Assembly: GCA_038245115.1 (NCBI GenBank)
Contig: JBBRSS010000003.1
Span: 3,298-67,297, forward strand
Direction: 5' to 3'
Source: Candidatus Saccharimonadia bacterium
GTDB lineage: Bacteria; Patescibacteriota; Saccharimonadia; UBA4664
Length of the DNA: 64,000 nt
How positions within the stretch are numbered: the first letter of the stretch is position 1; each line of letters starts with the position of its first letter. A model generated the notes under the pieces. The model saw nothing but the letters and a program-made list of their open reading frames with translations, was not told where the DNA came from and searched no databases. Of this stretch, positions 8,483-31,284 are shown one piece after another. The position numbers and the translations under genes were made by a program.

Positions 8483-10501
8483 ATGAATCACACCGACGCC
8501 AACGAGCGCATCCAGAAGCTTCGCACTCAGATCAACGAGTACCGTTATTACTACCATGTACTCGACGAATCCATCATGCCAGAAGCCGCCGCCGACAGCC
8601 TCAAACACGAGCTCACCCAGCTCGAAGAGCAATATCCCGACCTCATCACCCCCGACAGTCCCACCCAGCGCGTGGCCGGCGTACCCAGCTCAAAATTCGC
8701 CAAAATCACCCACACCCAGCGCATGATTAGCCTCAACGATGTCTTCGACACCGGCGAGGTCGAGGCCTGGGCCGCCCGTATCGCCAAGCTCCTTCCTGGT
8801 GAGAACATCGAATACTTTGCCGATACCAAAATGGACGGTCTGGCCTGCGCCATCACCTACCAAGACGGCGTACTCACTCAAGCCGTCACCCGTGGCGACG
8901 GTACGGTCGGGGAGGACGTCACCATCAACGTGCGCACCATCAACTCCGTCCCCCTCACGCTGCGCCGCTCCCAAGATCACCCCGAATTTCTCACCGGCCG
9001 CACCGAAATCCGCGGCGAAATCGTTATGCACAAATCCGATTTCGCCGCCCTCAACCAGGCCAACGAGGCTGCCGGCAAGCCATTATTCGCCAACCCCCGC
9101 AACCTCGCCGCCGGCACCATCCGCCAGCTCGATCCCGCCCTCGTCGCCGCCCGCCCCCTCACTTTCTACGCCTACGACCTCCTGCGCGACGATCCCGCCG
9201 ACGTGCCCACCTACGATTTCGCCTACGCCACCATCCGCGCCTTCGGCCTGCCCGCCAACCACCGCGCCACCACCTTCGCCACCATCCCCGAAGTCATGAA
9301 ATTCGTCGACTACTGGGACCAGCAGCGCCAAACCCTGCCCTTCAATACCGACGGCCTCGTCATCAAGGTCAACAACCGCGATCAATACGCCCGCCTCGGC
9401 ATCGTCGGCAAAGCCCCCCGCGGCGCCGTCGCCTTCAAATACCCCGCCGAAGAAGCCACCACCATCGTCAAAGACATCGTCATCAGCATCGGCCGCACCG
9501 GCGCCGCCACCCCCATCGCCACCTTCGATCCGGTAGTAGTCGCCGGCACCACCGTCCAACACGCCAGCCTCCACAACGCCGACGAAATCGCCCGCCTCAA
9601 CGTGCGCGTCGGTGACACCGTCATCATCTACAAGGCCGGCGACATCATCCCCAAGGTCCAAGAATCCCTGCCCAAACTCCGCCCCACCAACTCCATTCTC
9701 TTCAACATGGAGTCAGAACTCGCCCGCCAGTACCCCGAATTAGAATTTGAACGGCCCGAAGGGGAAGTAATCTACCGCGTCAAAGGTGCTACCGGTCCAT
9801 TATTCCTCAAAAAAGCCCTTGAGCATTACGCCTCCAAATCCGCCCTCGACATCGATACCCTCGGCGAGAAAAACGTCATCGCCCTCGTAGATTCCGGCTT
9901 CATCACCGACCCCGCCGACATCTATATCCTCTCCGTCGCCAACCTCCTCGGCCTCGACCGCTTCGCCGCAACATCCGCCCGCAAACTCATCGACGCCATC
10001 CACGCCAGCAAAACCCCCACCCTCCCGCGCTTCATCTACGCCCTCGGCATCCGTCACGTCGGCGAACAAACCGCCCTCGATCTGGCCGAGGCCTTCGGCA
10101 CCCTCGAAAATCTATCCCAAGCCACCCTCGACCAGCTCGAAGCCGTCGAAGGCATCGGCACCGTTGTCGCCGAATCCATCCTGGCCTGGTTATCAGACGA
10201 CGACAACCAAGACCTCCTCACCAAATTCACCCAACTCGGCGTCCAACCCCAACCCTTCACCAAAGCCACCGGCCCCCTCACCGGCGTCAATTTCGTTATC
10301 ACCGGCACATTAGAAATGGGTAGCCGCGACCAAGTCGCCGCCAAACTAGTCGCCCTCGGCGCCAAAGAGCAAAACTCCGTCACCAAAGACACCACCTACC
10401 TCATCGTCGGCGAAAATCCGGGCGGTTCTAAGTTTACTAAGGCGCAAAAACTCGGCACCAAAACTCTGGACGAGCAAGCTCTTACTGAGCTTCTAGGCTA
10501 G
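8483..10501 (+). CDS. ligA: NAD-dependent DNA ligase LigA
   Basis: KMDGLA adenylation motif, OB/Zn/HhH/BRCT order, 672 aa; TATAAT ends 7 nt before the ATG (leaderless). Confidence 0.95.
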   Translation: MNHTDANERIQKLRTQINEYRYYYHVLDESIMPEAAADSLKHELTQLEEQYPDLITPDSPTQRVAGVPSSKFAKITHTQRMISLNDVFDTGEVEAWAARIAKLLPGENIEYFADTKMDGLACAITYQDGVLTQAVTRGDGTVGEDVTINVRTINSVPLTLRRSQDHPEFLTGRTEIRGEIVMHKSDFAALNQANEAAGKPLFANPRNLAAGTIRQLDPALVAARPLTFYAYDLLRDDPADVPTYDFAYATIRAFGLPANHRATTFATIPEVMKFVDYWDQQRQTLPFNTDGLVIKVNNRDQYARLGIVGKAPRGAVAFKYPAEEATTIVKDIVISIGRTGAATPIATFDPVVVAGTTVQHASLHNADEIARLNVRVGDTVIIYKAGDIIPKVQESLPKLRPTNSILFNMESELARQYPELEFERPEGEVIYRVKGATGPLFLKKALEHYASKSALDIDTLGEKNVIALVDSGFITDPADIYILSVANLLGLDRFAATSARKLIDAIHASKTPTLPRFIYALGIRHVGEQTALDLAEAFGTLENLSQATLDQLEAVEGIGTVVAESILAWLSDDDNQDLLTKFTQLGVQPQPFTKATGPLTGVNFVITGTLEMGSRDQVAAKLVALGAKEQNSVTKDTTYLIVGENPGGSKFTKAQKLGTKTLDEQALTELLG

Positions 10502-10532
10502 GCCACAAGAAGCAATGTGCTACAATACACTC

Positions 10533-10660
10533 ACAATGCCTTCGGGCTCCGAGGACTCCACCCCAGGGGTCCGAAGTTGGTAACGGTCAGTCAGATGACA
10601 TTATCAGCGCCACAATGCCTTCGGGCTCCGAGGACTCCCCATAAGGGAGTCCGATTTTAT
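10533..10660 (+). repeat. Tandem 2x repeat of a UUCG-tetraloop hairpin element in the ligA 3' region; second copy forms an intrinsic terminator
   Basis: Perfect 27-nt direct repeat ACAATGCCTTCGGGCTCCGAGGACTCC at 10533 and 10612; each holds GCC-UUCG-GGC plus a GGACTCC.../GGRGTCC stem; the second is followed by TTTTATTT. Confidence 0.5.
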
Positions 10661-11058
10661 TTCCCGGAAGCTATTTCTTTGATCAGCCGCATTTGTATAT
10701 CTCTGAATGTAACCGGTTCCATGGTGTATAGCTTGCGCACCAGCCTTCGTCCATCGAATGCGCGTAACTGCGAAATAATTGCTGCATACATCTGCCCGTC
10801 ATGGCGGTACGAAAAATAGTATGGGTTGGCCGCTTTTACCTTGGTCGAAAGCGGGACTCCCCAAAACAGATTTGTGTCAAAGCCTCGCACAATCAGCACT
10901 GGACGTTCAAATCGGTCATTGTGGCCATCCTGCTCACGTCCAACATTCACGCCGATCGAACAATGCCAGACTTCGCGTTCGGCAAAAAATGCCCCGGCAT
11001 CAGCCTCATCCAGCCGCTTCTTTAGCGCATTCCATCCATCGAAATCTTTGCTCCACAT
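10657..11058 (-). CDS. MazF/PemK (Kid)-fold toxin-like protein, no cognate antitoxin ORF evident
   Basis: Core VWHCSIGVNVGREQDGHNDRFERPVLIVRGFDTNLFWGVPLSTKVK matches the PemK/MazF pattern (G.EQ.G.RP.L.V....VPLTS) after a 27-aa N-extension. Confidence 0.5.
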   Translation of the reverse strand: MWSKDFDGWNALKKRLDEADAGAFFAEREVWHCSIGVNVGREQDGHNDRFERPVLIVRGFDTNLFWGVPLSTKVKAANPYYFSYRHDGQMYAAIISQLRAFDGRRLVRKLYTMEPVTFRDIQMRLIKEIASGK

Positions 11059-11078
11059 AGTGATATTTTATCACAAAA
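11059..11078. promoter_or_regulatory. Perfect palindrome GTGATATTTTATCAC abutting the MazF-like start codon
   Basis: GTGATA-TTT-TATCAC at 11060-11074, immediately 5' of the ATG on the minus strand. Confidence 0.35.
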
Positions 11079-11235
11079 CCGAACAAAACAAGAACAAGTA
11101 TACGTCACCTCCATTATCACCGACACCCTCGCCACGGGCACCCTTGCGGGCCGCCGCCGCACCTAACCTTCCCGATTTCGCGCGGGCCGGGCATGTATAG
11201 CTGACTTTACATCCAGTCTGCGCTACAATGCCATC

Positions 11236-11451
11236 ATGACCCACAGCGAAACCGTTCAAAATATAGTGGCTATTCGCCGGCGCGAGTTGGGGCTAACTCA
11301 GGAGGAGCTGGCCGAACGGGTGCGGGTGACGCGGCAAACCATTATCTCCATCGAGAAGGGGAATTATGTTCCGTCGGTAATGCTGGCAATTAAATTGGCC
11401 CGCGTCTTTGGTGCGGCCGTTGAGGAGGTTTTTACGTATGAAGGCAAATAG
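11236..11451 (+). CDS. XRE-family HTH transcriptional regulator (71 aa)
   Basis: LGLTQEELAERVRVTRQTIISIEKG HTH_3 signature; CTGACT-17-TACAAT promoter with -10 ending 6 nt before the ATG. Confidence 0.7.
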   Translation: MTHSETVQNIVAIRRRELGLTQEELAERVRVTRQTIISIEKGNYVPSVMLAIKLARVFGAAVEEVFTYEGK

Positions 11452-11806
11452 GGCCAGGCTGTCTGAGTGGGCGATTGGGGCGGTGAGCGCCGTAGCCTTG
11501 CTGTTGCTCGTGGATCCTTGGGGGATGCTCATGCCCCCGGCCGTCGTAATGGCGCTCGGTGTGGCGGTGGCCGTGCTGGTGATTGGTTTTGCCATGTTCT
11601 GGTGGCGCGAGCAACCGCGCGACGAACGCGAAAGCCTGTATGCACTGCGCGCCGGCCGTGTATCGTATTTGGCCGGCGGGGCGGTATTGCTGGCCGGAGT
11701 GGTCTACCAGGCGTTTATGCACCACATCGATCCGTGGCTCCCGCTGGCGCTCGGTGCGATGATACTTACCAAATTGGTAGTCAGCGCCTGGTGGCAGCAA
11801 AAGTAA
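11438..11806 (+). CDS. Small membrane protein co-transcribed with the XRE regulator
   Basis: ATG overlaps the end of the XRE gene; 3-4 TM helices; the ORF track extends to 11408 but the RBS-less overlap start at 11438 is preferred. Confidence 0.45.
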   Translation: MKANRARLSEWAIGAVSAVALLLLVDPWGMLMPPAVVMALGVAVAVLVIGFAMFWWREQPRDERESLYALRAGRVSYLAGGAVLLAGVVYQAFMHHIDPWLPLALGAMILTKLVVSAWWQQK

Positions 11807-14303: not shown

Positions 14304-14448
14304 AACGGCATAAAAAATACCACCCCTTGCGGAGTGGTCAGCTGGTCCGGGTAGCCCGTAGGGCTTTTCCATTCGGAATTTGTCCCCGGTAGCTCGTTAC
14401 AGGATGATACTATCATAAAACGCCAGTACCAGTAAATAACACTATCAA

Positions 14449-25059: not shown

Positions 25060-25709
25060 GCCGTGGCTTTTTTACGGTAGGGGATGTTTACTTATGGTTA
25101 ATATATTACCATAACCGTTATGTAGAGTAGAAATTTTCTATTCACCCAAGACGAGGTCTTAGCCTTGATTCAATTGATCAGAATAGGTAAAGTATATAAA
25201 TTCTTTCACAACCAATTTAACGCAGAGCTAATTGGGCACGCGCTCGCGCCTAGCTAGCTCTCCGTTACTGCTACGGGAGCATTCCTGGCCCTCAGATCTG
25301 CCAAGCGGGCCAAACCACGAGAAGGGAAATACCTTGCCACAAGACGATAGCGGCGTGAAGGTCACTCGCTACCAGCCGTTCAGAGAGCCCCAGTCTCGAC
25401 CCCCCCGCTCGAAACCCGCCGACGACGGCGACCAAGCCAAGGTTCCGGGTTCCGATCCTTTCAAGGTCAAGTTCGACACCGGAGCGTCCACGAGAGCTGG
25501 GTTCTGACCGGCTCCCAGCACAAGCAGTAGCGGAAGCTCACCCGCCCCGGGCGGCCCGTCGACAATTCGTCGACTAGGCTGCCTGGGGTGCTTTCATTTC
25601 GCTCTTCCCATCTCGCCGCGCGGAGGTGTTCGCTCATGACCAAATTCGGCGCATAATATACGTATTAACGAGGTATTGCGCAATGGCACACAAAGGAGAC
25701 ACTGGGTTT

Positions 25710-25862
25710 ATGGGCGGGGGATGGTTGTTGGGATTTATTGGCGCCTTAATCTATTTTCTACAGCACGCTAGCTCGTTTTGGGTGGGCGTGGTCGGAATTC
25801 TTAAAGCTATTGTGTGGCCGGCCTATCTGGTTTACCACTTATTCTCGTTCCTACATATCTAA
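25710..25862 (+). CDS. Small membrane protein (50 aa)
   Basis: AAAGGAGA RBS 10 nt upstream; two hydrophobic helices. Confidence 0.35.
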   Translation: MGGGWLLGFIGALIYFLQHASSFWVGVVGILKAIVWPAYLVYHLFSFLHI

Positions 25863-30074: not shown

Positions 30075-30631
30075 ATCCCAAGATCAAATTGGCTCATCCA
30101 TACACGTACGGCAAGGGCTACATCATGCTCGATGTCCAGCTCACGGGCTTGCCCAGTACTCTGGAGTTAACGGGAACTACATACCAGGTAACGCCGGAGC
30201 TTCATTGCAGTCTGATAGCGACCAAAAAAATTGTCCCCCAGTTGGCAGAACTTGAAGGTATTTCCGCAACCGAGGCCGAGACCAAGGTCACTCAGCTCGC
30301 TTCCCAGATTATCAACGATATCAACCCATCCCTTCGCATTATCGGTCCAGAATTGCGTATCGCCGATCAGCCCGAACGAGACCGACGGACTATTGTGGTA
30401 ATGACAGAAGTAACCGGCCTAGCAGAGGTATTCCGTCGTCTGAATGAACAACTACCCTTAAACGTGCCTACCCAAACCACTCACATTGCCCTTTATGCGC
30501 TTAACGGGCTGCCCATCGGTATTACCAGTGCAAGTGAGCTCGCGGAATGGACTCGGCCATTAACCCACGAAGAGTCTGCTCAGTTTAACCGGCAGATCGA
30601 CGTAGGAAATATATTTGGAGTTCAGCTATGA
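30071..30631 (+). CDS. Hypothetical protein (possible 2H-phosphoesterase-like H-x-S/T-x motifs)
   Basis: ATGA overlaps on both sides; LHCSL near residue 45 and HIAL near residue 148 loosely recall the two 2H motifs (weak). Confidence 0.35.
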   Translation: MNPKIKLAHPYTYGKGYIMLDVQLTGLPSTLELTGTTYQVTPELHCSLIATKKIVPQLAELEGISATEAETKVTQLASQIINDINPSLRIIGPELRIADQPERDRRTIVVMTEVTGLAEVFRRLNEQLPLNVPTQTTHIALYALNGLPIGITSASELAEWTRPLTHEESAQFNRQIDVGNIFGVQL

Positions 30632-31284
30632 ATCCCGATCTTCGCGAAAAACTAGATAAATATCTCGATGAGGACTCCGACTTTCGCCAGGTCTATGACT
30701 ACACGAAGCAGCGCTTTGATGCCGCCCCGCATCTCACGGGACACAATTTCGAACATGCGCGACGCGATACTATCAACTCAATAGCAATCGGCGAACCCGA
30801 AGGTGCCGATATGACAATCGTTTTGTGCTCTGCCGTGATGCACGATATTGGTTTTCTGTATGGCGCTCATCGCAGCGTTCATGGCGAGATTGGTGCAGAA
30901 AAACTATCCGAGTTTCTAAATGATGGTGGGATCGATCTGGAGTCCGCGAAGTTGGAGCGGATTGCCGAATGTATTCGCACACACAAGGGTGTTACTCACG
31001 GCATATCTCCGGTTAGTCTGGAGGCAAAGGTTGTCGCCGACGCCGACCTGCTCGATAAATTCGGCCCCGTTGGGCTCTATCAGACCATCTTATCATTTGG
31101 GGAATTGGGCTTTGTACCTCAGGATGTTATCAGACGTATGTTTGGCCGTACTCACCTGCAGTTTGAGACATCGACCGGGACTAGCCTGGGATCAGGCTTA
31201 CAATCATATAATCAGGAGTTCGCCGAGTCGCTCGAGCGAGCCTATGCGCCATATGGCTTTGATGTACCGAAGGAGAAAGTATGA
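30628..31284 (+). CDS. HD-domain phosphohydrolase
   Basis: H...HD...H...D pattern (HNFEHARRD, VMHDIGF, DADLLDKFG); overlaps neighbours by 4 nt. Confidence 0.75.
   Translation: MNPDLREKLDKYLDEDSDFRQVYDYTKQRFDAAPHLTGHNFEHARRDTINSIAIGEPEGADMTIVLCSAVMHDIGFLYGAHRSVHGEIGAEKLSEFLNDGGIDLESAKLERIAECIRTHKGVTHGISPVSLEAKVVADADLLDKFGPVGLYQTILSFGELGFVPQDVIRRMFGRTHLQFETSTGTSLGSGLQSYNQEFAESLERAYAPYGFDVPKEKV

Follow-up and report, generated by a model that had tools for sequence, protein, structure and literature searches.

Organization of the locus

The subject of this study is a gene for a predicted MazF/PemK-type toxin, together with the small RNA (sRNA) gene that runs toward its 3' end, in a 64,000-nucleotide stretch of contig JBBRSS010000003.1 (assembly GCA_038245115.1) from a Candidatus Saccharimonadia bacterium. 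This whole stretch is referred to as the window, and positions are given within it unless another locus is named. An original prediction, made from the letters of the window alone, had described the toxin gene as a solitary orphan. Our comparison of the gene with its relatives shows it to be, instead, one half of a conserved two-gene module whose other half is the convergent sRNA gene. The features of the locus are collected in Table 1.

Table 1. Features at and around the toxin-sRNA module in the window (ORF, open reading frame; HTH, helix-turn-helix; R1 and R2, covariance models of the sRNA; E, expectation value)
Feature	Position	Strand	Description
ligA	8483-10501	plus	same direction as sRNA copy 2
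Extended -10 box TGCTACAAT for sRNA copy 1	10518-10526	plus	from promoter scoring; starts 17 nt after the ligA stop
sRNA copy 1 (distal)	10532-10578	plus	contains the 28-nt repeat; R2 46.9 bits, E 7e-14
28-nt direct repeat, first unit	10532-10559		CACAATGCCTTCGGGCTCCGAGGACTCC
Promoter of sRNA copy 2	10577-10604	plus	TTGGTA, 16 nt, CATTAT; ends 6 nt before the RNA start
sRNA copy 2 (toxin-adjacent)	10611-10662	plus	from models R1 and R2, terminator call and fold
28-nt direct repeat, second unit	10611-10638		same sequence as the first unit
Terminator of sRNA copy 2	10632-10652	plus	GGACTCCCCATAAGGGAGTCC followed by GATTTTATTT
Toxin gene	10657-11058	minus	intact ORF, 133 aa, ATG start; predicted MazF/PemK-family endoribonuclease
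Inverted repeat GTGATATTTTATCAC	11060-11074		GTGATA-TTT-TATCAC (6+3+6); overlapping both the -10 box and the first bases of the transcript
Extended -10 box TGATAAAAT of the toxin promoter	11065-11073	minus	from sequence; ends 6 nt before the ATG
XRE/HTH gene	11236-11451	plus	71 aa; divergent from the toxin gene, 177 bp from its start
Membrane-protein ORF	11408-11806	plus	132 aa; overlaps the XRE 3' end; weak SLATT-like matches

The toxin belongs to the MazF/PemK family

The original prediction had assigned the product of the toxin gene to the Kid/MazF fold and proposed a Pfam profile search and a structure prediction as checks. The protein motifs it quoted are present in the translation of the intact ORF, and its assignment proved correct by every route that we followed (Pfam, structure model, Foldseek and profile alignment to PDB sequences). 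The toxin matches PF02452 (PemK_toxin) above the curated threshold (E 2.5e-6, 28.1 bits against a cut-off of 23.1), with toxin residues 37-127 aligned to profile positions 8-107 of 109. The N-terminal extension that had been described is also there, with about 25 residues ahead of the MazF core, and it is included in a match over residues 4-109 to the PHROGs family phrog_9567, 'MazF-like growth inhibitor' (E 3.5e-15). NCBIfam contained no match to the toxin, no family among the PADLOC defense-system models matched it, and a single-sequence search of the PDB gave noise only.

A database search recovered 87 homologs of 81-211 aa (most of them 127-211), nearly all from metagenomes and several labelled Patescibacteria; PF02452 is carried by 85 of the 87. 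In an alignment of 37 homologs the toxin residues K4, W9, W31, G36, N38, E42, G45, R52, P53 and R105 are invariant, and F6, D7, N10 and K13 are conserved in at least 90% of the sequences. Since K4, F6, D7, W9, N10 and K13 are all conserved, the N-terminal segment KDFDGWNxxKK is a hallmark of the subfamily and not an accident of one gene. The AlphaFold2 (AF2) model built on the same alignment (predicted local distance difference test score 90.1, predicted template modelling (TM) score 0.85) has a helix at residues 6-18, followed by the SH3-like beta-barrel of MazF and by a C-terminal helix at residues 115-131. When this model was compared with the PDB using Foldseek, the top 50 matches were all chains of MazF or MazF-family mRNA interferases (YdcE/EndoA and MoxT among them), with E around 1e-6 and TM scores of 0.6-0.8 (0.66-0.79 for the best matches); they include MazF of Staphylococcus aureus, Bacillus subtilis (YdcE/EndoA) and B. 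cereus, MoxT of B. anthracis, MazF-mt1 and MazF-mt9 of Mycobacterium tuberculosis, and MazF of Escherichia coli. A profile search of PDB sequences aligned the toxin family to B. subtilis MazF (4mdx, E 2e-8), placing R52-P53 of the toxin on R25-P26 of that protein and the PL(T/S) motif (S71-T72 in the window protein) on T48; R25 and T48 are the catalytic residues of B. subtilis MazF. The toxin is a genuine member of the MazF/PemK family, as seen in its profile match, its fold and its catalytic Arg and Ser/Thr, and both sequence and model indicate that it is very probably an active endoribonuclease.

Two copies of a predicted small RNA gene next to the toxin gene

Just 3' of the toxin ORF there is an exact 28-nt direct repeat that the original prediction overlooked. 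Its sequence occurs at just these two places in the window, where 0 occurrences are expected, and no tRNA or tmRNA was found at it. The repeat forms the 5' part of two sRNA copies. Copy 2, the one adjacent to the toxin, is composed of a 5' tail (CACAAU), a hairpin P1 (GCC-UUCG-GGC), a linker (UCCGA), a terminator hairpin P2 (GGACUCCC-CAUAA-GGGAGUCC) and then GAUUUUAUUU, and its 3' end overlaps the toxin stop codon (10657-10659). It scores 62.1 bits (E 4e-21) with R1 and 59.9 bits (E 8e-19; span 10611-10660) with R2, its terminator was called independently of these models, and its minimum free energy structure consists of P1 plus P2 at -19.9 kcal/mol (z -2.6). As ligA runs in the same direction, this terminator also ends the ligA transcript. 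Copy 1 has a P2 of its own (GGACUCC-ACCCCA-GGGGUCC, with one G-U pair) and no U-tract, so that transcription probably proceeds into copy 2; a transcript of both copies folds with a z of -3.97. No further matches were found when the window was scanned with R2.

The sRNA family is conserved in relatives of the toxin locus

Longer toxin homologs have odd C-terminal tails (GVLGGRSH, ESPRIPKEL and similar) that are translations of the sRNA nucleotide motif, which suggested that the motif is widespread. A scan of one genome per species located toxin relatives in 328 stretches, and 80 loci of these were analyzed, mostly from metagenome-assembled genomes of Saccharibacteria and the Parcubacteria group, with a few labelled Trueperaceae, Chloroflexia, Rickettsiales, Rhizobium and Gammaproteobacteria. 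Their 3' flanks share one order of elements on the strand opposite the toxin: TTGACA, about 17 nt, a (TG)nTATAAT-like hexamer, about 7 nt, a 5' tail that is often ACAAAU, the hairpin P1 (usually GGC-UUCG-GCC), a linker (UC or UCCGA), a GC-rich and variable P2, and a U-tract reaching to or into the toxin stop codon. Because MAFFT and RNAalifold misaligned P2 when the sRNA classes were mixed, we used covariance models instead, R1 being built from 24 sequences and R2 from 63.

When both strands of 673 kb were searched with R2, 82 matches were obtained (E up to 0.05), all of them antisense to the toxin; at 69 of the 80 genome loci a match lies directly against the 3' end of the toxin gene. Nine or ten of the 11 loci without an R2 match keep the layout of promoter, ACAAAU tail, P1 and P2, with a diverged P1 (for example ACAAAUUGCC-ACUA-GGCA), so that with variants included the sRNA is present at about 78 of the 80 loci. 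The helices are well supported by the alignment: 95.5% of helix cells are paired, against 73.7% in shuffles and 44-68% in controls with slid partners, and 133 cells have changes on both sides of the helix, against 37.6 in shuffles. The helices contain 30 G-U or U-G pairs and a single A-C or C-A, and the RNA is therefore read from the strand antisense to the toxin. Promoters precede these RNAs with regularity, at least five of the six bases of TTGACA being found in 63 of the 82 and at least four of the six of TATAAT in 75, at a spacing of 16-19 nt; the -10 box has a TG extension in 34. Tandem copies like those of the window are found at four other loci (L009, L032, L035 and L047).

Searches of Rfam gave nothing at the sRNA. 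In the window between 10400 and 11300 the only match with E up to 10 was a spurious snoRNA, and at the gathering threshold there was no match at the sRNA in the whole window or at the sRNA positions of 17 other loci. The predicted convergent sRNA of about 50 nt is conserved, has no Rfam family and was previously undescribed.

Linkage of the toxin and the sRNA

The association is also seen within loci that have several toxin paralogs, since each paralog is followed by one sRNA (three and three in L038, two and two in L076). The linkage was examined from the RNA side with a metagenome scan using a 19-nt core of the sRNA, TGGCTTCGGCCTCCGAGRA, which gave 81 sites in 80 loci. A convergent toxin homolog accompanies 52 of these sites, four lie at contig ends and 25 have no toxin homolog, so that a toxin is found at 52 of the 77 sites that can be assessed. 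About 10 of the 25 toxin-less sites are chance matches in GC-rich coding sequence, with no model match or a weak one (25 bits or less). Three others (L093, L150 and L128) are toxin remnants or pseudogenes, internally deleted or frameshifted, that keep an intact sRNA; the 82-aa ORF of L093 retains a KPFDKWNDIKK start and the C-terminal helix and lacks the barrel. The remaining genuine copies include two orphans with full scores and consensus promoters that lie directly against the rpoC stop (L124, 8802-8852; L171, 686-740), one convergent to HicA with HicB upstream (L146, 4042-4095), one convergent to a YafQ-type toxin with an 87-aa upstream ORF (L136, 12745-12799), one convergent to a PIN gene (L122, 4061-4112), one convergent to an NYN gene (L111, 7347-7402) and some without any ORF alongside. 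Where the sRNA stands beside other RNase-type toxins it could be a portable cassette, or the other toxin could have replaced a lost MazF gene.

Taken over all genuine sites, the toxin is present at about 80% of sRNA genes and the sRNA at about 97% of toxin loci. An intact toxin without the sRNA is thus rare, and the sRNA without a toxin is tolerated, which is the asymmetry expected of an antitoxin. The copies next to rpoC, HicAB- and YafQ-type pairs, PIN and NYN genes would also be accounted for if the sRNA were unrelated to toxin control, either as a terminator or insulator cassette (the window terminator does serve ligA) or as an independent sRNA, the MazF protein then being solitary, either as a domesticated RNase or as one checked by its own N-terminal extension, which is conserved in the toxin family. 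Nothing in our data speaks for the internal inhibition by this extension that the original prediction had suggested. In a plain terminator, however, a consensus promoter and a conserved 5' hairpin would both be superfluous, and such an explanation has to contend with the two frequencies given above, with the single fixed position and orientation of the sRNA, with the separate sRNA copy of each toxin paralog and with the retention of the architecture in Epsilonproteobacteria in which the sequence is different (see below). We regard it as decidedly improbable, and consider it highly likely, from the comparison of sequences, that there is a genuine sRNA gene here whose function is linked to the toxin.

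Search for a protein antitoxin

The original prediction had stated that no small partner ORF lies on either side of the toxin gene and proposed a search for small ORFs that had escaped annotation. We collected the same-strand ORFs of at least 35 aa that abut the toxin in the 80 loci and compared the 122 of them with a length of up to 135 aa all-against-all by BLAST. No ORF family recurs upstream or downstream of the toxin, and the sole downstream cluster is the translation of the sRNA element itself. The statement holds in the sense that no partner is conserved; it overlooked the XRE/HTH ORF of 71 aa that sits 177 bp away.

XRE-type antitoxins are known, and a HigA- or MqsA-like role of this divergent gene, or a protein antitoxin encoded by an unlinked gene elsewhere in the genome, would restore a conventional toxin-antitoxin pair. 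The XRE ORF has weak, sub-threshold matches to HipB/HigA-type antitoxin models and is close to the toxin start, but a homolog of it is found in only one of 86 toxin loci, where it is about 800 bp from the toxin, and in the closest relative its position is occupied by hsdM. It also overlaps the gene for the membrane protein, with which it is apparently in an operon, and no neighboring ORF family recurs. The XRE neighbor was ruled out as the antitoxin on account of its lack of conservation, and a protein antitoxin of any kind appears highly improbable.

The XRE and membrane-protein genes look like an independent two-gene unit or operon (11201-11806, plus strand). The promoter of the XRE gene (CTGACT, 17 nt, TACAAT) ends 6 nt before its ATG, so that this gene looks leaderless too.

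The called-gene contexts of the toxin loci are mutually unrelated and consist of housekeeping or restriction-modification genes; they include ligA with a type I restriction-modification and ThsB-TIR island, an ABC-transporter operon, pentose-phosphate genes and radA. In the closest relative (L001, 1-5912, 57% identity) the toxin-sRNA pair is likewise convergent with ligA, and its other side has HsdR, HsdS and HsdM of a type I restriction-modification system and a ThsB-TIR gene where the window has the XRE and membrane-protein genes. The module seems to border a variable island in these two loci.

The 5' end of the toxin gene

The minus-strand sequence at the toxin start, TGTGATAAAATATCACTATG, contains an extended -10 element (TG-A-TAAAAT) and no Shine-Dalgarno sequence. 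A motif resembling Shine-Dalgarno precedes the toxin in just 9 of the 80 relatives, and a TAnnnT hexamer ends 6-8 nt before the ATG in many of them (for example L010, L014, L018, L032, L035, L041, L048, L066, L067, L072, L074, L076 and L083). Since the -10 box of the window ends 6 nt before the ATG without a Shine-Dalgarno sequence, and since the same layout is found in many relatives and in the adjacent XRE gene, the toxin mRNA is probably leaderless.

One base from the toxin start codon lies the 15-mer GTGATATTTTATCAC, which had been called a perfect palindrome abutting the start codon like an operator. Its reverse complement is GTGATAAAATATCAC, and it is therefore an inverted repeat, in which a spacer of 3 nt separates arms of 6 bp. 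Repeats of this 6+3+6 geometry are no rarer in the window than chance predicts (22, against 15.4 +/- 3.8 in shuffles), and among the 80 relatives the repeat at the toxin start recurs in L010 only, being missing from the closest relative (L007) and from the rest. An operator at this place was ruled out, as there is no true palindrome, its frequency is at chance level and it is not conserved; as the sequence reads, the feature is mostly the putative -10 box plus the first transcribed bases, a promoter feature without special significance.

Proposed mechanism

Among the three explanations that the original prediction had offered for a toxin without partner, the comparative evidence favors an RNA antitoxin. 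That the sRNA is the antitoxin of the MazF-type toxin is, in our judgment, probable; that the two genes form a module in which the RNA antitoxin acts by antisense pairing, in the manner of a type I system, is the explanation that we favor over the others, at about even odds. We infer that the sRNA would be expressed, would neutralize the toxin and would do so by base pairing. In this scheme the toxin would be made from a probably leaderless mRNA driven by the extended -10 promoter, and the sRNA would be transcribed from a sigma-70 promoter of its own toward the toxin gene, as far as an intrinsic terminator which, throughout the family, lies against the toxin stop or extends over it; in the window, such a terminator is found at the end of copy 2 only. 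Read in the toxin direction, P2 has an A-run before it and CUCGGAG after it and no U-tract, and therefore the toxin transcript should read through, so that its 3' end would contain a stretch exactly complementary to the entire sRNA. Most probably the sRNA would then pair with this end of the toxin mRNA and keep the toxin off, and the duplex might trigger RNase III cleavage and mRNA decay by analogy with txpA/RatA and bsrG/SR4. The toxin ORF runs through the sRNA gene in about a quarter of the 80 loci, and in those relatives the pairing would cover the toxin stop codon itself. It is the conservation at the level of the arrangement, the read-through and the ORFs that cross the sRNA gene that favor antisense action in cis, in the manner of type I systems.

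A search for a second pairing site, between the 5' part of the sRNA and the toxin coding region, was negative, cognate pairs giving -18.23 kcal/mol and non-cognate pairs -18.25 kcal/mol (p 0.49). In the window, eight nucleotides of the sRNA 5' tail (ACAAUGCC, 10612-10619) are complementary to GGCAUUGU at 10970-10977 (codons W31-H32-C33), and the window ranks third of 62 in this duplex test; there is no family-wide signal, and the match is probably due to chance.

Several observations count against antisense pairing by this sRNA. The sRNA promoters of the window (TTGGTA-16-CATTAT and TGCTACAAT) are weaker than the family norm, and a strict scan for consensus promoters did not call them. A few loci (L004 and L069) have a separate toxin terminator before the sRNA. 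P1 (GGCUUCGGCC), the linker (UCCGA in 41 of 82) and the 5' tail are conserved in primary sequence, which is not needed for cis-antisense action and hints at recognition by a protein. Genuine sRNA copies occur at sites without a MazF gene, and the tandem paralogous modules of L038 and L076 carry different sRNA classes. The conserved P1, linker and tail, the orphan copies and the differing classes are what one would expect if a protein, plausibly the toxin, recognized the RNA directly, as happens in type III systems.

In the main alternative, the sRNA would act on the MazF-fold protein itself and not on the mRNA, neutralizing it by being bound in the role of a pseudo-substrate or decoy, with the convergent arrangement being incidental or a means of coupling expression. 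MazF proteins bind single-stranded RNA, ToxN of the type III system ToxIN has a Kid/MazF-like fold, and the ToxIN, CptIN and TenpIN systems resemble the window module, as proposed here, in combining an RNA antitoxin with an endoribonuclease toxin. The parts conserved in sequence are P1 and its UUCG loop, the UCCGA linker and the tail of ACAAAU type, which persists even where P1 has changed; the intact orphan genes away from a toxin suit an RNA acting in trans, and the tandem copies, the different classes in tandem modules and the coincidence of a subfamily-specific N-terminal helix with an RNA partner agree with it as well. The layout, by contrast, is unlike that of known type III loci: the RNA genes lie 3' of the toxin gene on the other strand, have promoters of their own and are mostly present in one copy, and there is neither an upstream repeat array nor a terminator-controlled transcript shared with the toxin. 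The ToxN/AbiQ family was not among the Pfam matches of the toxin, and across phyla only the convergent 3' overlap survives and not the sequence of the RNA. We think direct neutralization possible but somewhat unlikely. The two mechanisms could also be combined, the convergent RNA of about 50 nt neutralizing the RNase directly through its tail, UUCG hairpin and UCCGA linker and acting as an antisense RNA at the same time; this hybrid of types I and III seems to us unlikely. Such an RNA might be a portable cassette that serves other RNase toxins as well, given its HicA, YafQ, PIN and NYN neighbors.

Relatives outside the candidate phyla radiation

A tblastn search of plasmids found toxin homologs on 44 plasmids of Campylobacter, Helicobacter and Nitratiruptor, including pVir of Campylobacter jejuni 81-176. 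Among phage records they were found only in CJIE4-type prophages and phages of Campylobacter, and the IMG/VR viral contigs contained no relatives of the toxin. The pVir homolog, WP_011117588.1 (pVir 30630-31034), is a protein of 134 aa with a PemK match (E 8e-8) and an N-terminal FDEWNxxKK motif. At four epsilonproteobacterial loci (Campylobacter pVir, Helicobacter and Nitratiruptor) the strand opposite the toxin has a TATAAT or TACAAT box, two to three hairpins and a terminator abutting the toxin stop, and none of the four has a conserved upstream ORF. This convergent element is AT-rich and unrelated in sequence to the sRNA of the candidate phyla radiation (CPR), and therefore it is the arrangement and not the sequence that is conserved over the longest distance.

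A possible precedent, the only one, is the cjrA/cjpT pair of C. jejuni pVir, which two publications (PMC10470494, PMC7826846) assign to type I, with an antisense RNA as the antitoxin. The likeness to the window module is that pVir also carries a PemK homolog with a convergent promoter, hairpins and a terminator at the stop codon. If cjpT is this PemK-like gene, the antisense mechanism has one experimental example, and the family-wide sRNA is still undescribed. Another published antisense RNA of pVir, Cjpv2, maps elsewhere, at 25.2-25.4 kb, opposite small hydrophobic ORFs. Our literature searches turned up no work on MazF in Patescibacteria and none on RNA antitoxins of PemK toxins.

Comparison with known toxin-antitoxin systems

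The toxin of the window resembles those of the type II systems MazEF, PemIK and Kis-Kid in its Pfam family, its fold and its aligned catalytic Arg and Thr/Ser. The module differs from these systems in having no MazE/PemI-type or other conserved protein antitoxin and no co-transcribed upstream gene, and in having an extra N-terminal helix in the toxin, a probably leaderless mRNA and a convergent RNA gene as the partner.

In the type I systems txpA/RatA, bsrG/SR4 and bsrE/SR5 of B. subtilis the antitoxin RNA is convergent with the toxin gene, is transcribed from a promoter of its own and overlaps the toxin gene at its 3' end, so that the complementary sequence is in the 3' region of the toxin mRNA; in txpA/RatA and bsrG/SR4, pairing at the 3' ends causes the mRNA to be cleaved by RNase III and degraded. 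The window module is like these systems in its convergent, 3'-overlapping RNA gene, and the overlapping antisense RNA gene that marks a type I system at the DNA level is recognizable in its sequence. Toxins of this type are small hydrophobic membrane peptides and their antitoxin RNAs are 100-220 nt long and restricted to certain lineages; the toxin of the window, in contrast, is not such a peptide but a soluble protein of 133 aa with an RNase fold, and its RNA is about 50 nt long with a primary sequence conserved across several phyla. SymE/SymR and RalR/RalA are type I systems in which nuclease-type toxins related to components of type II systems are controlled by antisense RNA, and they provide precedents for antisense control of a nuclease toxin. 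Their toxin folds differ from that of the MazF of the window, SymE having an AbrB-like fold, and SymR overlaps the 5' end and ribosome-binding site of its toxin gene, whereas the antisense RNA of the window is at the toxin 3' end.

Annotation pipelines label this clade of MazF proteins as type II, yet the evidence indicates that the clade has no protein antitoxin and has a conserved sRNA gene. It is found in the genomes of at least 328 species, mostly Patescibacteria/CPR and also Deinococcota, Chloroflexota and plasmids of Campylobacterota. What appears to be new, as far as sequences can tell, is a toxin-antitoxin module with an unexpected combination of toxin and antitoxin, and an undescribed sRNA that is spread over hundreds of genomes and several phyla. 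If the sRNA is the antitoxin, hundreds of 'orphan' MazF genes of CPR bacteria are complete modules, RNA antitoxins reach the MazF family proper, and type I-like control extends beyond small membrane peptides and beyond narrow lineages. The covariance model is a ready tool for the re-annotation of toxin-sRNA loci, and the plasmid homologs of Campylobacter, Helicobacter and Nitratiruptor make the idea of an RNA antitoxin testable in cultured organisms.

Other observations

Pfam scans of the other pVir ORFs did not reveal a type II pair. In the intergenic region of this plasmid (L088) at 25150-25720, to which Cjpv2 maps, the minus strand has small ORFs, 54 and 71 aa long and very hydrophobic, which RefSeq leaves unannotated; they are a possible classical type I toxin.

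At L213 (3892-6574), an ABC-transporter operon has a 164-aa member of the toxin family, in the same orientation, between two of its permease genes; the start of this member overlaps the stop of the upstream gene, and it looks like an insertion into the operon. The L214 locus has a second, ordinary-looking PemK gene (115 aa; 9037-9539) after a 53-aa ORF, in a classical MazEF-like arrangement, so that a single genome contains MazF modules of both kinds. In the window itself, a DUF3800-II RNA motif of Rfam is found about 3.3 kb from the toxin at 14336-14400 on the minus strand (61.2 bits against a gathering score of 43.2).

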